From a virus (lineage: Duplodnaviria > Heunggongvirae > Uroviricota > Caudoviricetes), in IMG/VR virus record IMGVR_UViG_2541047816_000001: DNA of 38,662 bases. One strand, written 5' to 3'. The position numbers and the translations under genes are program-made. Shown here one piece after another: positions 4,633 through 16,497 of the stretch (the stretch's first letter is position 1; each line of letters begins with the position of its first letter). The notes beneath the pieces were generated by a model. The model was not told the origin of the DNA and did not search any database. It saw nothing but the letters and a program-made list of their open reading frames with translations.

Positions 4633-4806
4633 GGTGCTTATGCTGACGAAAGAACCATCATTTGCATCGCTGCTGGTAAAACAAAGCCCGGCAATGCACT
4701 ACGGTCACGGCTGGATCATGGGTGAGGATGGTAAACGCTGGCATCCGTGCCGTTCACAAGATGAATTGCTGTCTGAATTGACCACGGGGAAACGGAGAAA
4801 GTCAAA

Positions 4807-5923: not shown

Positions 5924-6222
5924 CAGGGGCTGTGCGTATCCATCAATTAAAAATTGCACCTAAGTATTTCAACGCTGTGGTTGCAGGTCAAAAGACGGCT
6001 GAACTTCGTAAAGACGATCGTGGCTATAAAGTTGGTGATGTTCTTTCTCTTTGCGAATGGAAGCATGGCGTATTTACGGGTAGGGAATGGGCCGCGGTTA
6101 TCTCTCATGTGCTTCCGGTTAATGACGTCATGGCAGTTTCAGAACAATGGGTGATGCTATCAATTCGCTCATTAACCCCATTAGAAGCTTTAGGATATGT
6201 TATTGCAGGAGGTGCTGTATGA
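5920..6222 (+). CDS. Small PUA/ASCH-like domain protein
   Basis: 100-aa ORF from ATG 5920 (ATGA overlap with previous stop, GGAGGTG RBS); sequence pattern ..[28 protein letters not shown].. resembles ASCH/DUF-type domains common in P2-like early regions (family assignment tentative). Confidence 0.45.
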
Positions 6223-7085
6223 GCACCATCCTGAAATGGGCGGGAAATAAAACCGCAATTATGTCCGAACTGAAAAAACACCTTCCTGCTGGCCCGCGAC
6301 TGGTTGAACCTTTCGCGGGTTCCTGTGCTGTGATGATGGAGACGGATTATCCAAGCTATCTGGTTGCGGATATTAATCCTGATTTAATCAACCTCTATAA
6401 AAAGGTTGCCGCTGATTGTGAATCGTTTATATCTCGCGCCAGAGTTTTATTTAAGGAAGCAAACAGGGAGGTGGCTTATTACAACATAAGGCAGGAGTTT
6501 AATTACTCAAATGAAATTACTGATTTCATGAAAGCGGTATATTTCCTGTATCTCAATCGTCACGGTTACCGTGGTTTATGTCGCTATAACAAGAGCGGGC
6601 ATTTCAACATTCCCTACGGTAATTATAAAAATCCGTATTTCCCAGAAAAAGAAATTCGCGCATTTGCAGAAAAAGCCCAGCGGGCAACGTTTATCTGCGC
6701 CAGCTTTGATGAAACGCTGGCGATGTTGAAGGCGGGGGATGTGGTGTATTGCGATCCGCCGTATGACGGCACGTTTTCCGGTTATCACACTGACGGCTTC
6801 ACTGAAGATGACCAGTATCACCTGGCATCCGTTCTTGAACATCGGTCATCAGAAGGACATCCGGTCATTGTTTCTAACAGTGACACATCCCTGATCCGTT
6901 CGCTGTATCGCAATTTTACTCACCACTACATCAAGGCAAAACGCAGCATCGGCGTAGCAGCTGGTGAGAGTAAATCTGCAACAGAAATCATCGCTGTTTC
7001 TGGGCGCGCTGCTGGGTGGGATTTGAGCCTTCGCGTGGCGTGGATAGTTCTGCCGTGTACGGAGTGCGTGCATGAGCCATGCTGA
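6219..7085 (+). CDS. DNA N6-adenine methyltransferase, Dam family
   Basis: N-terminal LKWAGNK, FAGSCAV SAM-binding region and catalytic DPPY motif (CDPPYDGTF); ATG 6219 overlaps previous stop. Confidence 0.8.
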
Positions 7086-9486
7086 TATGAACAACTGCAG
7101 CGGCTTTAACGAGGCCGCCGCAGCATTCTCATGGAACAGCCCGAAAAAGGCTATTAACCCTTATCTGGACCCGGCGGAAGTTGCGCCGGTTTCTGCGCTT
7201 TCAAACCTGATCACTCTGTACGCTGCCGATAACGAGCAGGAACAACTGCGCCGCGAGGCACTGAGTGATCAGGTCTGGGAGCGTTATTTCTTTAATGAAT
7301 CCCGTGATCCTGTCCAACGCGAAATGGAGCAGGATAAGCTCATTAGCCGGGCAAAGCTGGCGCATGAGCAGCAGCGTTTTAATCCAGATATGGTCATTCT
7401 GGCGGACGTCAATGCCCAGCCTTCCCATATCAGCAAGCCGCTGTTGCAACGTATTGAATACTTCAGCAGCCTAGGCAGGCCAAAGGCTTATTCCCGCTAT
7501 TTGCGTGAGACGATTAAGCCATGTCTGGAACGACTGGAGCATGTACGCGACAGTCAGCTATCCACTTCTTTTCGCTTTATGGCAAGCCATGAAGGGCTGG
7601 ACGGCCTGCTGATCCTGCCTGAAATGAGTCAGGATCAGGTGAAACGCTTGTCTACCCTTGTCGCTGCGCATATGAGCATGTGCCTTGATGCAGCTTGTGG
7701 CGATTTGTATGTCACCGATGACGTTAAGCCAGAAGAAATCCGCAAGACATGGGAAAAGGTGGCAGCGGAAACCCTGCGTCTGGATGTCATCCCGCCTGCG
7801 TTTGATCAACTCCGCCGGAAAAGAAACCGCCGTAAACCCGTGCCCTATGAACTCATTCCGGGTTCGCTGGCGCGTATGTTGTGCGCCGACTGGTGGTACC
7901 GGAAATTATGGAAGATGCGTTGCGAATGGCGGGAAGAGCAGTTGCGTGCTGTTTGCCTGGTCAGCAAAAAAGCATCTCCCTATGTCAGCTATGAAGCCGT
8001 GATGCATAAACGTGAGCAGCGCCGTAAGTCGCTGGAGTTTTTTCGTTCTCATGAACTGGTGAACGAAGACGGCGACACGCTGGACATGGAGGATGTGGTA
8101 AACGCCAGCAGCAGCAACCCTGCGCATCGCCGCAATGAGATGATGGCCTGTGTTAAAGGCCTGGAGCTTATCGCGGAAATGCGCGGTGACTGCGCCGTTT
8201 TCTACACCATCACCTGTCCGTCACGTTTCCATTCCACGCTAAATAACGGCAGGCCCAACCCAACCTGGACAAATGCGACGGTAAGACAAAGTAGTGATTA
8301 TCTGGTCGGCATGTTTGCTGCATTTCGTAAGGCGATGCACAAAGCCGGATTGCGCTGGTATGGCGTGCGGGTGGCTGAGCCGCATCATGACGGTACAGTT
8401 CACTGGCACCTGTTGTGTTTTATGCGCAAAAAAGACCGCCGCGCCATCACTGCATTACTGCGTAAGTTTGCCATCCGTGAAGACCGCGAGGAGCTGGGCA
8501 ATAACACTGGGCCGCGCTTTAAGTCTGAGTTGATTAACCCGCGCAAAGGTACGCCAACAAGCTACATCGCGAAATACATCAGTAAGAACATGGACGGGCG
8601 TGGTCTGGCTGGCGAGATCAGCAAGGAAACGGGGAAATCCCTGCGTGATAATGCTGAATACGTTAATGCTTGGGCGTCTCTGCATCGTGTTCAGCAATTC
8701 CGCTTCTTTGGCATTCCGGGGCGTCAGGCTTACCGTGAACTGCGATTGCTGGCTGGTCAGGCGGCAAGGCAACAGGGGGACAAAAAAGCAGGTGCGCCGG
8801 TACTGGATAACCCGCGCCTTGATGCAATCCTGGCTGCTGCTGATGCTGGTTGTTTTGCCACCTACATTATGAAGCAGGGCGGCGTACTGGTTCCCCGCAA
8901 ATATCACCTTATCAGAACAGCTTATGAAATTAACGAAGAGCCGACCGCCTATGGCGATCACGGTATTCGTATTTATGGCATCTGGTCACCCATTGCAGAG
9001 GGCAAGATTTGTACTCATGCAGTGAAGTGGAAAATGGTTCGTAAGGCCGTTGACGTTCAGGAGGCGGCAGCCGACCAGGGCGCTTGCGCCCCTTGGACTC
9101 GTGGCAATAACTGTCCCCTTGCTGAAAATTTGAACCAACAGGAGAAAGATAAATCAACAGATGGGGATACCAGAACTGACATTACCTGTATGGATGACAA
9201 GGAGTTGCACGATTACCTGCATAGTATGAGCAAAAAAGAGCGCCAGGAACTGGCAGCAAGATTACGCCTGGTGAAACCGAAACGGCGTAAAGACTACAAA
9301 CAGCGAATTACAGAGTATCAGCGTCAGCAGCTCGTCTATGAACTGAAGTCAAGAGGATTTGATGGCAGCGAGAAAGAGGTCGATTTACTCCTTCGCGGTG
9401 GCAGTATTCCGTCAGGAGCAGGCCTGCGTATCTTCTATCGGAACCAGCGTTTGCAGGAAGATGATAAGTGGCGGAACCTGTATTAA
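7072..9486 (+). CDS. A: Rolling-circle replication initiation endonuclease (P2 gpA-like)
   Basis: 804-aa ORF; HUH-type motif (GTVHWHLL) followed by paired-tyrosine motif (YIAKYISK); position after early genes. Confidence 0.85.
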
Positions 9487-9973: not shown

Positions 9974-10528
9974 TTGCTTCTTATGAATCATGTAATGTTA
10001 GATATAGAAACATTGGATGTTGAAAAAACAGCTTATATCCTTTCAGTTGGTGCGGCTTTTTTCGTGCCGGAGACTGGCGAGATTGGTCCGGGTTTCTATC
10101 AAGTTATTTCGCTTGATCATGAACAAGCAGGCAGAACCATTGCCCCCTCTACTGTAAAGTGGTGGATGAATCAAAGTACTGAAGCTAAAAACGAAAATTT
10201 TGATGGCACTAAGGACCTTTTAGAGGTTCTGAATGAATTTGTGGCATTTATTCTTCATAATCGTACTGGCCGAGTAAAAGTGTGGGGAAACGGGAAAGAG
10301 TTTGACTGCACGATCATGCATCATGCCCTGTTACAGGCGGGTCTGGATTGCCCATGGTCATTCAGAGATACTCTTGACGTTAGAACCATCTTAGCACTTG
10401 GTGAAAGCAAAGGAATTTTTTCTCATGCTGATAAAAATTTCACTGGCATTAGGCACACAGCATTCGATGATGTTTTATTTCAGATCGCACAGGTTTCTCA
10501 CATCTATATGAATTTAAATAAAAAATAA
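9974..10528 (+). CDS. DEDDh-family (DnaQ-like) 3'-5' exonuclease domain protein
   Basis: Motifs in order: DIETLD (Exo I), VWGNGKEFD (Exo II region), HTAFDD (Exo III His/Asp). True start probably ATG 9983 or 9995 rather than TTG 9974. Confidence 0.6.
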   Translation: MLLMNHVMLDIETLDVEKTAYILSVGAAFFVPETGEIGPGFYQVISLDHEQAGRTIAPSTVKWWMNQSTEAKNENFDGTKDLLEVLNEFVAFILHNRTGRVKVWGNGKEFDCTIMHHALLQAGLDCPWSFRDTLDVRTILALGESKGIFSHADKNFTGIRHTAFDDVLFQIAQVSHIYMNLNKK

Positions 10529-10543
10529 ATATAGGACTTAGCT

Positions 10544-11455
10544 ATGGATTGCTTAGATGTAACCTATTGGACTGAGCTAGATGTTTTCGCACAGTATCCT
10601 GTTGGTGCTCGCTCTAAGGCATTGGTTATTTCCCCTGATGTTGCCCCCCATGGTATCAAAGCATCGTGGCCGTATCTTTTTAAGAGAAGTATTAAAAAAT
10701 ACCCAGATCAATTTTGGTGTGAGATCGTTGCCTACAGGATTGGATTGCAGCTTGGTTTTAATGTCCCCAAAGCAGTTCCTTCGTTAAAGACTAATGATTT
10801 GGGGCATACGTTTTGCGGGGCCCTCATTGAGTGGTTTCATCATAAAGATTATGAGAAATTTGCTCCCGCTGGTGATTACTTTGTTCGAAGAGATCCAAAT
10901 TTTGATCGTGAGAAAGGAGCTAAGCATTCCATTGAAGGGCTGAGGATTATCGCGAAAGCTCTTAAAGTTGACTATGTTGAGTGGTTGGAGAATATGGCTC
11001 TCTTTGACGCAGTAATAGGTAATACAGATAGACATCAAGAAAACTGGGGGTTTATCTTCTCCCCTTTAACCAGCGAGTGTCAGCTTGCACCATTTTTCGA
11101 TAATGGTACGAGCTTATGCTACGAACGCTTTCCGGAACATGTTGCTGATTGGACCGATCATAGACTCAGGGAGCATGTTAGCCGGGGAAAGCATCATTTG
11201 CGTAAAACTCTGGGCAAAGATGAGTATCAGAGATTAGGTCATTTAGAGTTAATCAAAGAACTTTGTGATAAAAAAGAAGAATTAAAACAGCGGGTAGCTG
11301 AAAGACTGGCTCGTTTGAACCATGACTTTTGGGACTCAACTTTTGCGGAGTTGACGGAAATAAACTGCCCTGTTCCGCTGACTAGAGAACGTGCTGCATG
11401 GATTGTTCGTGTAACAAACATGCGTATTGAACTGATTAAAGGTGTTACTTCATGA
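10544..11455 (+). CDS. HipA-family Ser/Thr kinase core lacking the HipA N-subdomain (HipT-like)
   Basis: Three HipA kinase motifs in correct order and spacing: G21-ARSK (cf. HipA GAQEK), IGNTDRHQEN at 158-167 (catalytic loop, cf. HipA GATDGHAKN), FFDNGTS at 184-190 (Mg-binding, cf. HipA FYDI); 303 aa. Confidence 0.6.
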   Translation: MDCLDVTYWTELDVFAQYPVGARSKALVISPDVAPHGIKASWPYLFKRSIKKYPDQFWCEIVAYRIGLQLGFNVPKAVPSLKTNDLGHTFCGALIEWFHHKDYEKFAPAGDYFVRRDPNFDREKGAKHSIEGLRIIAKALKVDYVEWLENMALFDAVIGNTDRHQENWGFIFSPLTSECQLAPFFDNGTSLCYERFPEHVADWTDHRLREHVSRGKHHLRKTLGKDEYQRLGHLELIKELCDKKEELKQRVAERLARLNHDFWDSTFAELTEINCPVPLTRERAAWIVRVTNMRIELIKGVTS

Positions 11456-12156
11456 CTATCTTAATAGAAAAAATTCCCATGCCAAGTAGGCTCTTACTGA
11501 CATGGCAACCGACCGACGGCGGCTCTCGCTATGTCGTTGGTGAACTTCTTCAAGATGAGTCTGAAGGCTACGAGTTTAATTATCTTACGGATAGCAAAGA
11601 TTTTGCTAAAGCTGGGGATAAAGGCTTTCACGGTTTTCCTGCTTTTGACATAAAAGTTACGACTCATCGCAAAGACGTTATGCAAACCTTTTCAAGAAGG
11701 TTACCCTCCAGGAAAAGAGAAGATTTTGCCGATTACTTGCTGACGTTTCGTCTTCCTGCTGATTTTAGAGAGAATGACTTCGTTTTGCTCGCTTGTACTG
11801 GCGGAAAAGTGGCTAGTGATGGTTTTTATTTTGTCCCAGACTTGTCTTCTATTCGGCCACCTTTTGATTATGTCATGGAGGTCGCCGGAACGAGACACAT
11901 GATTAAGGAAGGGCGTCTAGCTCTTGACGAGATATCAATTGGTGATGAAGTCATATTGCGCAATGAAGATACCAATACTGTTGATCCGCTGGCCATATTA
12001 GTAACGAAAAACGACAATCATCTAGGGTATGTCAACAAGGCATTGTGCGCCGCATTACGAGATCTTAGTAAAAACCATGATATCAGTGGAGTGGTCGTAC
12101 GTAAAAATGGCTCTTCGGATAGGCCTTTGATTTATGCAAAAGTATCTGTTAGATGA
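11452..12156 (+). CDS. HipS-like N-domain fused to C-terminal HIRAN domain
   Basis: N-terminus LLTW...VGEL...F.Y pattern parallels the HipA N-subdomain (LVTW..VGEL..FKY); C-terminus GDEVILRNEDTNTVDPLAILVTKNDNHLGYVNKALCAALRDL fits the HIRAN signature; start overlaps kinase stop by 4 nt (ATGA). Confidence 0.5.
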   Translation: MTILIEKIPMPSRLLLTWQPTDGGSRYVVGELLQDESEGYEFNYLTDSKDFAKAGDKGFHGFPAFDIKVTTHRKDVMQTFSRRLPSRKREDFADYLLTFRLPADFRENDFVLLACTGGKVASDGFYFVPDLSSIRPPFDYVMEVAGTRHMIKEGRLALDEISIGDEVILRNEDTNTVDPLAILVTKNDNHLGYVNKALCAALRDLSKNHDISGVVVRKNGSSDRPLIYAKVSVR

Positions 12157-12466
12157 TGCATGTTTATTCATGCTTGCTAGTGATGCTGCATTCATAGAGT
12201 CTGTCAACTATGGAGATTTTTTCGTCTCATGCAACTACATTAAATTACCATTAAGTGGGTTGACGTTGCGGGGGAAGCATTACACGTCAGTATTGGTGCG
12301 TCTGAAGTGTCATGCCGAAAAGGTATGAAAAAGCCGCTTGGTAACATAACTATTCGCAATGATGTTGTAGGAAGCGAACTGGAAATGATAGCAATGGATG
12401 CTGTTGATGTAGTGTATGTATATGCTGCATGAGTTTGCATGAACGTTTGAGGCTCGTTTTTGTTAA

Positions 12467-12492
12467 GGCCCGCCAGAACTGGCGGGCTTTTG
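12467..12492 (+). terminator. Rho-independent terminator candidate downstream of the accessory operon
   Basis: GC stem GCCCGCC-loop-GGCGGGC followed by TTTTG. Confidence 0.45.
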
Positions 12493-12536
12493 CTCATGTC
12501 ATGCAGGTGCATGAAAACCACTACATAAAGCGGGCA

Positions 12537-12560
12537 GGCGTGGCGGGGATACGAGCGCAC
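12537..12560. other. Candidate cos site region (cohesive end)
   Basis: GGCGTGGCGGGGA... resembles the start of the P2/186 19-nt cohesive-end sequence as I recall it; expected location between the accessory region and Q. Confidence 0.3.
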
Positions 12561-12827
12561 GCCGCGGGTTGAAATAGTAAAATTCACTTAGCCTCAGGCC
12601 CGCTGATGGTTTTCTTCTGAAAGGGAGGGCGCGTTTTTGTGCAATCTTGTTTGAAGGGATTTAAATAAATGTTGAATGTGTTCCGGAGTTGGCTGTAGAT
12701 TTAGTGTTCTGTCACAAGTTGCAGTGATAGGTAGCAAACCTTTAAAAGGTTCTGCTATTGTTTCATTAAAGATTTATAGTCTTTGTCCGAAAATGACATT
12801 AAAGTAGTCGCCTTTAATGTCGTAAGC

Positions 12828-13382
12828 ATGAAGGACAGAGAATTGAACTTAGAGCAGATTGCCAGTCAAAGTATAAGTAACCTTCAGTTTCTCCTCGATA
12901 CTTTGAAGATGCCGTTGGCTGTTGGTCCAATCAGTGATGAAGACTATGTGATCCTGACCACAGGATACGCTCAGCTAGAATGGGATTATGGTTTTTCTCG
13001 GTTTGGCAATCGAAGTGATAAGTTTGAATTTTGTTTGAAGCTCCTTGCGGGGCCACTTAGGCATATCCCTTCTGGCGCAGCTATGTGCACCTTTGACGAG
13101 GACGCTGGAGTCATAGAGATCCATTTTGTGGAATCTTTTGTGAAAGATGATGACGTAGAGCACCCTCTTTACGGCAACATGTTCATGGTTACATTGTGGG
13201 CGGTATATCTTTTTGGTAGCGCGGTTGGGTGTCAAGAGATTCGGATCCCTGAAGCCCTGAATCAAAAAGTTGCTGACCACTATAAAAAATTTGGTTTTAA
13301 AGGTGATATAAGCTTGCTTTCGGCACCTTTTGCTACAATAACTGATGTAGTAAGACGCTACATTACTTCTAAGAAACAGTAG
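12828..13382 (+). CDS. Hypothetical cargo protein, weak GNAT-like C-terminal pattern
   Basis: ORF open from 12783 (TTG) with first ATG at 12828; C-terminal ..NQKVADHYKKFGFKG.. weakly resembles GNAT motif B; assignment tentative. Confidence 0.4.
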   Translation: MKDRELNLEQIASQSISNLQFLLDTLKMPLAVGPISDEDYVILTTGYAQLEWDYGFSRFGNRSDKFEFCLKLLAGPLRHIPSGAAMCTFDEDAGVIEIHFVESFVKDDDVEHPLYGNMFMVTLWAVYLFGSAVGCQEIRIPEALNQKVADHYKKFGFKGDISLLSAPFATITDVVRRYITSKKQ

Positions 13383-13461
13383 ATAAATTTTTGCGCAGTG
13401 CTACAATGCTGCGCCAAACATCCACTACCGGATGATGAGGCTTGACCTCTAAGAGGAAATC

Positions 13462-13641
13462 ATGACTATGACGCATAGTGACAAGAAAGCTCAGAAGCAT
13501 TACTCAGTATCTGATGTTTTCAGCCGTATGGGCGTCGCGATGGAAGAACTACTTCAAGCGGCCCCACATATGATGCAGGACTGCAAATTTGAAGGAAATG
13601 AGCTGCATGGTAAGCTCAAAGAAAAGCAGAAAGCTGCTTAA
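13462..13641 (+). CDS. Small hypothetical protein (59 aa)
   Basis: ATG preceded by AAGAGGAAAT RBS; followed by a strong terminator; below the ORF-track threshold. Confidence 0.35.
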   Translation: MTMTHSDKKAQKHYSVSDVFSRMGVAMEELLQAAPHMMQDCKFEGNELHGKLKEKQKAA

Positions 13642-13665
13642 TTCCATGAAATGCGTTTTGCATGA

Positions 13666-13690
13666 AGCCCGGTAATACCGGGCTTTTTTA
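13666..13690 (+). terminator. Rho-independent terminator
   Basis: AGCCCGGTA/TACCGGGCT hairpin followed by TTTTTT; sits between convergent small ORF and Q. Confidence 0.6.
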
Positions 13691-13696
13691 TGCTTG

Positions 13697-14734
13697 CTAG
13701 TCAGTATTAAGCTCATATGGATTGAATCGGACTACCTCTTCACCAAGCCATTCATTTAGCTCCAGCAATCGCTTTTGTAACGGTACTATTTCGTTTCTTG
13801 TGAAGACGCGACTGGCCTTTTCCACATCCCCAAAACCGCCGGTATTGTTGGGAATGATACCCATCATTTGCGGCGGCACACGATGCGCCGCCATCATGTC
13901 GTCCCGGCTCACGTTCTTGATATTCAGGAACTCATCCTTCGCCGCCACTTCTGACAACGGGATAATCTGAAGCCCATCCTTTTTGCCGTTAGGCGAGTAC
14001 ATAAACAGGTTACGGAAGTTACCAGGACCTTTGGCACTTTTCATTGCGTTGCGGAGGTTGTTCACATCCTCCTGGTTCTGCGCGGCGTCGGTCATGTACA
14101 TGATGAAGCCCGCATGGCTGCCGTTAATGTAATACTTCCGGCGGAACAGCGTGGCGGACTCGTTGAGCAGGGCTGACGGAATGGCAGAAAGATAACCGGG
14201 CAGGCCGTAGATCTCCTGGTTGATGTCCGGCTCCATCAGATGAAAAATGCTGCCTTTCGTGAACTGATACGGCTGGGTTGTCATACCGTATTGCACAAAC
14301 CAGTAGGTATCCAGGTCTAACCCGCGTCGGGTGTATTTTGCCAGAGCAGGCTCAAGGGCTATAACTTCACCGAAGCGGTTCGTGCGTTTCTCCAGGTAGG
14401 CGTTACCAAAAACCAGAAAGTCCTGTACAAAACGCGAAAAAGCCTGCTGGCTGAGCAGCGGGTGAGGGATGTAGGTGCTGGTCAGAATGTTGCACTTCAC
14501 TGCAATCGGTGAGCTATGATGTATGGCGGCGCGGAAGGTTCGCGCCAGTCCGTCGAAACTCACTGGTGGCTCATACCAGCGATCCATCTGTACGCATTCC
14601 ACATAGTCCAGCAGTTCGCGGCGGTCCAGAACAGGAACGGGATCACCGAAGCTGAATGCTTCGGCTGAAGTCTGGCTTTTATGCTGGATCTGTTTCGTCG
14701 ACGCAGCGCGGTTCTTCTTACTCTTTCCCATCAA
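13697..14734 (-). CDS. Q: Portal protein (P2 gpQ-like)
   Basis: 345 aa; size and position upstream of terminase ATPase; P2 late-gene synteny. Confidence 0.8.
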   Translation of the reverse strand: MMGKSKKNRAASTKQIQHKSQTSAEAFSFGDPVPVLDRRELLDYVECVQMDRWYEPPVSFDGLARTFRAAIHHSSPIAVKCNILTSTYIPHPLLSQQAFSRFVQDFLVFGNAYLEKRTNRFGEVIALEPALAKYTRRGLDLDTYWFVQYGMTTQPYQFTKGSIFHLMEPDINQEIYGLPGYLSAIPSALLNESATLFRRKYYINGSHAGFIMYMTDAAQNQEDVNNLRNAMKSAKGPGNFRNLFMYSPNGKKDGLQIIPLSEVAAKDEFLNIKNVSRDDMMAAHRVPPQMMGIIPNNTGGFGDVEKASRVFTRNEIVPLQKRLLELNEWLGEEVVRFNPYELNTD

Positions 14735-16497
14735 AAAATCTCCACAATATTGCTGGTATTGGCGGACTCGCCCTGCAGCGGTTCGTTAAACAGTGCGTGC
14801 ATTGTTGCCCAGGCCAGATCGGCATGGCTGGCTTCTTCGCTGCGGCTGGCTTCATAGGTCGGGCGGTTGCCACTGGCAGTGGTAGCGCGACGGATTGCCA
14901 TAAATGACTGCGCAATGTCGGTGTGCCCGGCGTCAAACTCCAGGCGGCGGTGGCTGATAATGTCGTAGGCCTTGAGTACCAGGGCGTTTTTAACGTTGGG
15001 GTTGTAGACAAACTCCCGGACGGCAGGAAAAAACGCTTTCACGTTCTCGTAAACCCCGTGACCGACGCCGGTCGAGTCGATGCCGATATAGGTCACGTTA
15101 TACTGTTCGGTCAGTTTTTTGATGGCGTCAGCCTGGGCGCGAAAGTCCATTCCGCGCCACTGGTGACGCTCAAGAATGCGGAACTTGCCGCCCGGCACGG
15201 CTGGCGGAGCCACCACCACGCATCCGGCGCTGTCGCCGTTTTGCGTACCTTTTGCCGGGTCATAACCGATCCACACTTCGCGCCAGCCAAACGGGCGCAG
15301 CGCCAGTGCATGAAAGTCGGTCCAGACTTCCCAGCTGTCCACCATGCACGCCTGCAGCTCGCTGAGCGGGAACACGGACGCGAGATCGTCCACGAACTCA
15401 CACATCAGCAGGTTCTGGTATTCGTCCGGGCTGTACTCCATGCGCAACTGGTCGAGGTCGAACAGGTTACAGCCGCCGCGCACCGCATCTTCCACAGTGA
15501 CTATCTGGCGGTACTGCCCGTCTGCGCACAGCAGGCCGGGGGCCAGATTGCTGTGGGACAGGTCGATGTCCACCTTATCGGCTTTGTTGCGCCCTCGGTT
15601 GAACAGCGCACCGGACCAGAACGGATAAGCACTGTGTGTCAGGCTGGATGGCGTGGAAAAATAGGTTTGTCGCCATTTTTTGTGAATAGCCATACCGGAA
15701 GCCACTTTGCGCAGCTCCTGGAATTTCGGTATCCAGAAATATTCATCCAGATACAGGTTGCCGTGGTAACTCTGGGCCGTGCGGGCATTGGTGCCGAGGA
15801 AGTACAGCGTGGCCCCGTTAGGAAGCACCATCGGATCGCCTTTCAGCTCCACCTCCACTTCTTTGGCGAAGTCGATGATGTACTGCTTGAAGACGTGGGC
15901 CTGAGCCTTGCTGGCGGAAAGGAAAATCTGGTTACGCCCGGTTAGCAGGGCGTCAATCAGGGCTTCACGGGCAAAATAGAAGGTCGCGCCGATCTGGCGT
16001 GACTTCAGCAGGTTGCGGATGCGGTTGGTTTTTCCGGCTTCCCACCAGTGGCGCTGGTAGTTGAACATGGAGGAATGGAAGATTTCTTCCAGCTTCTCAA
16101 TCTGTTCATCGGTGAAAACGTTCTTTTCCGGCTGACGGCGCGGGCCTTTGTTGCGGTTGGCGACGTTAGGGTTTAAGTCGGCTTCGTTGCCGCCATTGTT
16201 AAACTTGCCGATCCGCGCATGGCGCTCCGACTGGCGCGCCAGCAGGTCAATCTCTTTGAAATCTTTCCCTTCTTTGTGCTCCTTCATAATGAGCTGGCAG
16301 TAGCGTGCGGCGGTGGTGAGCTGCATCTGATCCAGCGGCCCATAGTCACCCCACTTGTCGCGTTTTTTCCAGCTGTGAACGGTTGCAACTTTCTCGCCCA
16401 GCATTTCAGCAATGCGGGCTACACGGTATCCCTGAAAGTACAGCAGCATGGCCTGCCGACGGGGATCGAGATCTGCGGGTGTCAGTGTGGTGTTCAT
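14731..16497 (-). CDS. P: Terminase large subunit, ATPase (P2 gpP-like)
   Basis: 588 aa; overlaps Q start; divergent from the O-N-M-L operon as in P2. Confidence 0.8.
   Translation of the reverse strand: MNTTLTPADLDPRRQAMLLYFQGYRVARIAEMLGEKVATVHSWKKRDKWGDYGPLDQMQLTTAARYCQLIMKEHKEGKDFKEIDLLARQSERHARIGKFNNGGNEADLNPNVANRNKGPRRQPEKNVFTDEQIEKLEEIFHSSMFNYQRHWWEAGKTNRIRNLLKSRQIGATFYFAREALIDALLTGRNQIFLSASKAQAHVFKQYIIDFAKEVEVELKGDPMVLPNGATLYFLGTNARTAQSYHGNLYLDEYFWIPKFQELRKVASGMAIHKKWRQTYFSTPSSLTHSAYPFWSGALFNRGRNKADKVDIDLSHSNLAPGLLCADGQYRQIVTVEDAVRGGCNLFDLDQLRMEYSPDEYQNLLMCEFVDDLASVFPLSELQACMVDSWEVWTDFHALALRPFGWREVWIGYDPAKGTQNGDSAGCVVVAPPAVPGGKFRILERHQWRGMDFRAQADAIKKLTEQYNVTYIGIDSTGVGHGVYENVKAFFPAVREFVYNPNVKNALVLKAYDIISHRRLEFDAGHTDIAQSFMAIRRATTASGNRPTYEASRSEEASHADLAWATMHALFNEPLQGESANTSNIVEIF

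Follow-up and report, generated by a model that had tools for sequence, protein, structure and literature searches.

P2-like phages carry an anti-phage hotspot between gpA and gpQ, next to cos (old/tin), in which 1,650 arrangements were recorded in 18,150 loci (Rousset et al. 2022, PMC9122126) and which was confirmed in 2026 (PMC13586616). Toxins of the GCN5-related N-acetyltransferase (GNAT) type, found in two-gene toxin–antitoxin (TA) modules, are defined by a DUF1778 partner (DUF4065 in clade C) and form one clade (PMC9177977), and the toxin AtaT uses a positively charged dimer surface for the tRNA acceptor stem, together with G108 and Y144 (PMC7595197). Here, we analyze by computation a two-gene cassette in a 38,662-nt stretch of DNA, IMG/VR virus record IMGVR_UViG_2541047816_000001 (the window, numbered from its first letter), whose sequence context is that of an E. 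coli P2/186-like prophage. The cassette encodes a protein of 179 residues with a predicted GNAT fold and, behind it, a protein of 59 residues, and it lies between cos and the portal gene (gpQ homologue).

The exact pair is listed in supplementary file 6 of the hotspot study as 'hypothetical + hypothetical' (WP_001485637 and WP_021523861), and is also tabulated there with DinI-type neighbours (PMC9122126). A search of the text and supplement of that study gave no record of the pair being cloned or tested, and literature searches on the protein family found no paper. An insertion at a known hotspot is expected, and the undescribed part is the protein family. Our tentative reading is that the two genes form a TA-like pair of the abortive-infection type, expressed from the lysogen.

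The gene pair and its expression signals

The cassette corresponds to two open reading frames (ORFs) called on the plus strand at 12783–13382 and 13462–13641, followed by the convergent portal gene (13697–14734, minus strand) and the terminase gene (14731–16497). They exist as the original prediction had described them, between a cos-like site and the stop codon of the portal gene Q. Measured against orthologous Mixta and Pectobacterium cassettes, dN/dS is 0.03–0.06 for the large gene and 0.15–0.21 for the small one, and this purifying selection on both ORFs, together with their pairing, indicates that both are real genes. The large-then-small order, with both genes on one strand and about 70–200 nt of non-coding DNA between them, was seen at every locus examined. 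It holds in the first ten loci, in L016–L021 (which include Serratia symbiotica, a metagenomic lambdoid prophage and Edwardsiella) and in the remote L023–L025 (~20% identity; one with an uncalled ORF), and the identical small protein was paired in nine of nine distinct neighbourhoods.

For the large gene, a start at TTG 12783 or ATG 12828 had been proposed. The former does give 199 residues, the latter gives 184 and not 185, and both are probably wrong. The conserved start is most likely TTG 12843, from which the gene spans 12843–13382 (plus strand) and encodes 179 residues; residue numbers below are counted from this codon. In the alignment, TTG 12843 is kept in all five upstream regions and is preceded by the Shine–Dalgarno (SD) sequence AAGGA (12831–12835) at a spacing of 7 nt, and in L003, L004 and L006 it is the sole start codon available in frame. 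Another E. coli prophage, L028, encodes a protein that is 98% identical from DNA that is merely 85% identical. Its large gene is intact, but the gene caller shortened it to an internal ATG, which suggests that no ATG lies further upstream. Homologues of the large protein in the databases start MNLEQIA or MNYEQIA.

Alignment of the five loci also delimits a conserved leader ahead of the large gene (12765–12842, plus strand). Sliding identity climbs from 12765 in all carriers, and a nearly invariant stretch, CGAAAATGACATT, begins at 12788. Scanning for consensus promoters revealed no sigma-70 site 5′ of the large gene, and TATAGT at 12775–12780 is at best weakly indicated as its −10 element.

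The small gene (13462–13641, plus strand; 59 residues, PHROG 2741, labelled 'unknown function') has signals of its own. The promoter scan returned an extended −10 element between the two genes, TGcTACAAT at 13399–13407 (TG 13399–13400, TACAAT 13402–13407), with counterparts TGaTAGAAT, TGaTAAAAT, TGgTACAAT and TGgTATAAT in L003–L006, TAGAAT in L007 and TATAAT in L025. An inverted repeat (GCGCAG 13393–13398, CTGCGC 13409–13414) encloses the extended −10, in close relatives as well as here. This intergenic control element (13393–13414, plus strand) is probably a separate promoter for the small gene, and the repeat is possibly its operator. The 5′ leader that follows (13419–13457, plus strand) contains a hairpin, CATCC..GGATG (13419–13434), and ends in the SD sequence AAGAGGA (13451–13457), in keeping with the strong ribosome binding site noted in the original prediction. 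Its folding is modest (z = −2.1), and a GAGG..CCTC..GAGG arrangement could occlude the SD sequence and so serve regulation.

The clear terminator that had been proposed behind the small gene is also present. It is an intrinsic terminator (13664–13692, plus strand) with a 10-bp stem (six GC pairs) followed by a T-run, ending the cassette 5 nt before the convergent portal stop (13697), and a matching hairpin and T-run lie 3′ of the small gene in L002–L007. The T-run is on the plus strand only, the portal strand having CATGCAAAAC after the stem; the terminator thus looks made for the cassette and not for the portal operon, and in this it differs from the tQ and tW terminators in P2 and 186.

Synonymous divergence (pS) is unevenly spread over the cassette. 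Relative to the Mixta (L003, 6503–6820) and P. brasiliense (L004) copies, pS is 0.67–0.74 (saturated) for the large gene and 0.21–0.22 for the small gene, and in the same two copies the intergenic region is 87–90% identical and 13445–13503 is 94–96% identical. Over 13330–13650 the pattern would reflect recent recombination across the 3′ third of the cassette, or else selection at the nucleotide or RNA level.

Predicted GNAT fold and small partner

The large protein belongs to PHROG 4350, labelled 'unknown function', and has no meaningful match in Pfam, PADLOC (PADLOC-DB v2) or NCBIfam. The Pfam acetyltransferase models match none of 26 close family members and one of 57 wider members, weakly (Acetyltransf_1, E = 0.006). 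Searching the PDB with a profile of the close family gave nothing at E ≤ 10, phmmer and hmmsearch gave no PDB toxin, and a profile of the wide family gave sub-threshold matches to GNAT motif B only (E ~0.3 or worse). A word-indexed search of 5.8 billion proteins returned 29 relatives, and all those with an organism name are from Enterobacterales; an exhaustive profile search of 1.84 billion cluster representatives (50% identity) returned 75 at E ≤ 1e-3. The family is small, and its identified members are prophage-borne and from Enterobacterales. One homologue carries the UniRef label 'N-acetyltransferase domain'.

An AlphaFold2 model of the large protein, built on a 26-sequence alignment (pLDDT 81, pTM 0.79), has GNAT topology, with a mixed alpha/beta arrangement of beta1-alpha1-alpha2-beta2-4-alpha3-beta5-alpha4-beta6-7. 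It bears out what the original prediction had suspected from a weak GNAT-like pattern in the C-terminal part, NQKVADHYKKFGF. Foldseek against the PDB gave 121 matches at E ≤ 1e-3, with AtaT, KacT and TacT3 at the top. Ordinary GNATs lie within 0.3 Z units of TacT3 in the structure comparison, and for this model the seeming structural preference for toxin GNATs is within noise. The best neighbours by TM-score include SpeG, PA3270, streptothricin acetyltransferases and aminoglycoside acetyltransferases, and structure matches in BFVD were to generic viral GNATs only. As modelled, the protein has a GNAT fold and is highly divergent in sequence.

The residues conserved in the family are W47, E97, H107-P-L-x-G111-x-M113, N140, Y147 and G151-F152. 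Motif B (N..A..[FY]Y.K.GF, with the Tyr ending alpha4) is present and accounts for the C-terminal pattern: EALNQKVADHYKKFGF aligns with EALNEKAHTFYKSLGF of AtaT, placing Y147 opposite the catalytic Y144 and N140 opposite N137, and also with SNESAIDFYRKFGF of Naa50 ('...DFYRKFGF'; Y124). Across 57 distant members (17–49% identical), Y147 is kept in at least 90% and W47 is invariant, and E97, the Glu ending beta4, is invariant in the close family. The motif A loop between beta4 and alpha3 (Q/R-x-x-G-x-G/A) is absent, and an invariant HPLxGxM (107–113) follows a longer loop instead; in a low-confidence hhalign alignment, only its first Gly pairs with Q103-G-Q-G-W-G108 of AtaT. The contacts of the GNAT loop with coenzyme A (CoA) are made largely via the backbone, so acyl-CoA binding is still possible despite the atypical loop. 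Judged from these residues, catalytic competence is likely but not assured.

The family is also acidic throughout, with a pI of 4.3–5.4 and a net charge of −7 to −15, compared with a pI of 6.5 and a net charge of −1.1 for AtaT. Conservation is highest in the N-terminal half, on the acceptor side. Taken together, the acidity and the conservation of this half point away from tRNA and towards a cationic protein or small molecule as substrate. As an argument against tRNA binding, the acidity is of moderate weight only, because the overall charge of AtaT is itself close to neutral.

The small protein has no Pfam match at E ≤ 1 and no meaningful match in PADLOC or NCBIfam; an NCBIfam match to PcsB is noise (17 bits against a cutoff of 450). 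Its structure model (pLDDT 67) consists of one helix, residues 16–39, with disordered ends, and a lone helix is neither a ribbon-helix-helix (RHH) nor a helix-turn-helix. Partners at the different loci have 52–61 residues. An alignment of 11 orthologues (30–92% identical) shows that a core, F..MG.A.E.L..A.P, a 'G.E..G' element and a basic tail are kept. The tail ends in (K/R/Q)KAA in all 11, and the partner at the remote locus L023 ends in PKAA. Recognition signals for ClpX include the ssrA '...LAA' and MuA '...RRKKAI' classes, and by analogy the KAA tail is probably a ClpX-type degron.

Position and distribution of the cassette

The left edge of the cargo slot is the cos region (12405–12585, not assigned to a strand), delimited by its DNA match to P2-like phages. 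Within 11300–13750, matches to other phages at the DNA level are confined to this segment, which is 88–92% identical to 58 P2-like records from Klebsiella, Escherichia, Salmonella, Erwinia and Yersinia. The cos core, GGCGTGGCGGGGATACGAG (12537–12555), is of the 186 type, and 12537–12549 is identical to the first 13 nt of cosL, the cohesive end of phage 186. The cos-like site that had been pointed out here is thus real, and the identical cos motif lies upstream of the cassette in each P2-like carrier examined. The right edge is the portal gene (13697–14734, minus strand; Pfam Phage_portal, E = 8.5e-17). From cosL to the portal stop, P2 has 187 nt and 186 has 196 nt, with only a terminator in between, and the window has 1160 nt. 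It follows that ~1 kb of extra DNA separates cos from the portal gene, and the suggestion of inserted cargo held when P2 and 186 were compared. An Rfam search of 12150–13750 matched no family.

With the gpA homologue (replication endonuclease) at 7072–9486, cos at 12537 and the portal gene at 13697–14734, the cassette belongs to the gpA-gpQ hotspot by position. Occupancy of the slot varies, with no cargo in P2 and 186, a TIR-domain protein and a hypothetical protein in phage 500465-1 (L014, 2727–4029), and orf14 and orf15 in SopEPhi (L015, 2778–4326). This differing cargo suggests that, within the hotspot, the portal side of cos forms a variable sub-slot of its own. The upstream partners of the pair vary as well (HipA-HIRAN, DinI, HNH or an insertion sequence). 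The cassette is therefore like described hotspot cargo in its placement between gpA and the portal gene and in the variability of the interval, and unlike it in lying on the portal side of cos and in matching no PADLOC-DB v2 model.

Among 5426 complete E. coli genomes, 11 carry the cassette. Positions 12590–13700 are 100% identical in strains SF-173, FDAARGOS_1283 and GmF052, and at least 99.8% identical in eight more. Matches on plasmids are confined to five of 72,556 records, mostly phage-sized replicons, a scarcity that argues against a plasmid addiction module. The cos-portal position is occupied in P2-like prophages of Escherichia, Mixta, Pectobacterium and Edwardsiella. In the lambdoid phage mEp460 and in L023 the cassette adjoins the integrase gene, and further sites are directly 3′ of an S24 repressor gene, antiparallel between the Q antiterminator and lysis genes, and after RusA/Q-like genes. 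Such a spread over P2-like and lambdoid backbones, at differing sites, points to a mobile moron and not to a part of the virion.

A phage moron, in the concept of Juhala and Hendrix, is an autonomous promoter-gene-terminator insertion. The cassette has this architecture, with a predicted promoter and a terminator that are kept in orthologous loci, four kinds of site, and insertion between conserved genes of unrelated backbones. It differs from most morons, among which single genes are commoner, in consisting of two obligatorily linked genes, and the term names an architecture and not a function. One acquisition event appears to have left a trace in Pectobacterium sp. B2J-2 (L005, 5554–5784), where a 77-codon 3′ fragment of the portal gene lies 175 nt from cos and is followed by the cassette and then by a full portal gene. 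On sequence grounds, this fragment at the ancestral distance from cos is an acquisition scar, consistent with one illegitimate and one homologous crossover.

Several loci depart from an intact prophage. In E. coli 504239 (L011, 8108–11849) and in L027, an IS66-family element (ISCro1) lies in the portal gene beside the cassette, so that the prophage is inactivated and the cassette intact. In P. brasiliense (L004) and in an Erwinia metagenome-assembled genome (L006), neither a portal nor a gpA homologue was detected up to 6 kb from the cassette, and the genes that flank the latter copy look like ordinary chromosomal ones for transporters and regulators. The cassette may also occur outside recognizable prophages, or in degraded ones. 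In the prophage of FDAARGOS_1283, which is identical to the one studied here, RefSeq annotates a DNA adenine methylase gene (~6219–7075) as frameshifted and a Fil-family gene (~4640–4795) as a partial pseudogene, flags that may hint at prophage decay.

Just upstream of cos, the window also contains a three-gene block (9974–12156, plus strand). It encodes a DUF5051/Rv2179c-like 3'-5' exonuclease (9974–10528), a HipA_C-like kinase (10544–11455) and a HIRAN-domain protein (11452–12156) whose gene overlaps the kinase stop. Of these, the kinase and the HIRAN protein match parts A and B of the PADLOC candidate system PDC-M03, each with E = 4e-36, and by sequence the hotspot of this prophage would hold another candidate defence module, independent of the cassette. 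An 'Exonuclease + HipA' P2 construct (pFR108) is among the systems cloned by Rousset et al. (PMC9122126).

What the pair may do

The TA-like reading is favoured, tentatively, by the strict pairing, by the contrast between an enzyme gene starting with TTG and a partner with its own promoter and strong SD sequence, and by the lack of translational coupling. Location in a validated defence hotspot, the degron-like tail and the moron-type layout point the same way, as does a prophage-only distribution at sites typical of exclusion genes expressed from lysogens. In such a scheme, the large gene would be weakly translated from its TTG to give a divergent, acidic acyl-CoA N-acyltransferase of GNAT fold, and the small gene, served by its extended −10 promoter and strong ribosome binding site, would supply an abundant but labile partner that binds the GNAT and keeps it inactive. 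Infection or stress would stop synthesis of the small protein and set the stable GNAT free. The freed enzyme would then acetylate an essential basic target (a protein lysine, an N-terminus or the amine of an aminoacyl-tRNA), and arrest of the cell or of the incoming phage would result.

Modules with a comparable layout are known. In higBA, hicAB and mqsRA the toxin gene comes first and an extra promoter serves the antitoxin, which binds DNA, and the toxin is an RNase. The cassette resembles these systems in having its presumed effector first and its presumed antidote second, an independent promoter for the second gene and a weak first start codon. It departs from them in a partner without a DNA-binding domain and in an effector with a GNAT fold instead of an RNase fold.

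A number of observations weigh against the TA-like reading. Neither protein has a PADLOC match. Neither the structure model nor Pfam gives the small protein a DNA-binding domain, so any autoregulation would need another mechanism. Among the neighbourhoods examined there was no small gene without a large gene, that is, no 'orphan antitoxin' (L028 was considered as such a case and rejected, its large gene being intact behind a TTG-only start). Sequence change has been no faster in the small protein than in the large one (34 and 39% identity to the mEp460 proteins, respectively), which is atypical for antitoxins. Two remote partners end otherwise than in KAA, and the degron reading of this tail draws on general knowledge of ClpX signals. 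Finally, the atypical HPLxGxM loop means that the large protein could be catalytically dead: in the low-confidence hhalign alignment, G106 and G108 of AtaT face Met residues, and the G108D mutation of AtaT abolishes CoA binding (PMC7595197).

The alternative that survives best, a possible one that we nevertheless hold to be somewhat unlikely, is that the pair is not toxic. The GNAT would then be a lysogenic-conversion or counter-defence enzyme acetylating a specific small molecule or a host or phage protein, with a polyamine, an aminoglycoside-like or streptothricin-like cation, or an immune effector as candidate substrates, and the small protein would be a specificity subunit, a regulator or a substrate instead of an antidote. 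A precedent for the counter-defence form is AcrVA5, an anti-CRISPR acetyltransferase that acts on an immune effector. The large protein is likened to it by fold and setting only, as a small GNAT of a mobile element that could acetylate a protein of a competing system; AcrVA5 is a single gene with no obligatory small partner. Strong acidity is typical of GNATs with cationic substrates, SpeG, PA3270 and the streptothricin and aminoglycoside acetyltransferases are among the neighbours with the best TM-scores, and the conserved acceptor-side half suggests one fixed substrate. The Lys/Arg-rich tail of the partner would also suit this role, and moron sites hold non-defence conversion genes too. However, subunits of an enzyme are usually translationally coupled, and here a gap of 79–196 nt and a separate promoter lie between the genes. 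The TTG on the enzyme and the strong ribosome binding site on its partner fit restraint better than partnership, and no substrate is indicated.

It is unlikely that the large protein is a catalytically dead scaffold of GNAT fold, with the pair acting by binding, for example in superinfection exclusion or in a regulatory complex. HPLxGxM in place of the canonical CoA pyrophosphate loop, and the lack of any sequence match to acetyltransferase models, would be explained in this way. Against it, the motif B Asn and Tyr and the Glu of beta4, which are mainly of catalytic importance, are kept down to ~20% identity, and CoA-loop contacts through the backbone would tolerate the loop found here.

The original prediction had pointed to the established GNAT toxins with small antitoxins, albeit noting that the large-then-small order is not the classical one. 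The order is indeed reversed relative to those systems, and the link to the family did not hold. We consider it quite improbable that the large protein is a true member of the AtaT/TacT/KacT/ItaT group, acetylating aminoacyl-tRNA and restrained by an unconventional downstream antitoxin. The likeness to AtaRT, TacAT, KacAT and ItaRT is real as far as it goes: a two-gene module on mobile DNA, a GNAT-fold protein of ~175 residues, the nominally best structural matches, a retained motif B Asn and catalytic-type Tyr, and a partner that could block the active site. In contrast, the partner here is a 59-residue single helix, downstream and with its own predicted promoter, and neither a DUF1778 (RHH) nor a DUF4065 antitoxin was found in it by Pfam or in the structure model; the upstream genes are unrelated to such antitoxins. 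The GNAT itself differs in its atypical CoA loop, in its strong acidity and in its lack of detectable membership in the sequence family. The charge of the protein weighs, though not decisively, against tRNA binding, and a basic patch like the one that AtaT requires for this is not evident. Comparison of the 57-member family profile with a 28-member AtaT/KacT profile in hhalign gave a probability of 24.5% over 85 columns. Nearly all the listed AtaT/KacT relatives carry PF13508/PF00583, unlike the 26 close and 57 wider members of this family, in which no Pfam acetyltransferase match is consistent. Lacking a DUF1778 or DUF4065 partner and failing the test for the toxin clade, the cassette is not a member of AtaRT/TacAT.

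The roles could also be reversed in a manner resembling type VII systems, the small, basic, helical peptide being harmful or active and the GNAT neutralizing or tuning it by lysine acetylation, which we regard as very improbable. The enzyme-then-small order is the usual antitoxin-then-toxin order, the partner has a Lys-rich tail and an amphipathic helix, and the acidic GNAT is complementary in charge to a basic peptide. The expression signals argue otherwise: they are stronger on the small gene, the enzyme has a TTG start, and a module is unlikely to make more toxin than antidote. The peptide showed no features of membrane activity or of nucleic-acid binding.

A role as a conserved part of the packaging machinery or virion in P2-like phages, as the location beside cos, portal and terminase genes might suggest, is hardly credible and was rejected on distribution, since the module is absent from P2, 186 and 5415 of 5426 E. 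coli genomes, gives way to other cargo in the same slot of other P2-like phages, and in lambdoid prophages is found next to int, next to cI or between Q and the lysis genes.

Returning to the TA-like reading, its most specific form is a new prophage-borne abortive-infection or TA class, in which a sequence-orphan GNAT acts on a basic target other than tRNA, is held in check by a single-helix antidote of ~59 residues that lacks a DNA-binding domain, is short-lived through its KAA degron and is resupplied from its own promoter, and in which the module hops between P2-like and lambdoid hotspots. Put so narrowly, the proposal is doubtful.

That a known hotspot holds unknown cargo is unsurprising, and the interest of the cassette lies in its protein family and not in the insertion. 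In its parts it would be a sequence-orphan variant of known things, namely GNAT-fold effectors, two-gene TA-like morons and P2 hotspot cargo, and, as a 1.1-kb cassette from a small prophage-borne family, it is cheap to test. If the pair is a non-toxic modifying enzyme and its accessory protein, the substrate would show what the lysogen gains. If the TA-like model is true, the cassette would be a hitherto undescribed module for phage defence or addiction whose effector is an acetyltransferase, and the repertoire of the P2 hotspot would gain acetylation-based effectors paired with a minimal, degron-tagged helical antidote. A function would then be at hand for PHROG 4350 and PHROG 2741, and for a protein family that has no Pfam model.

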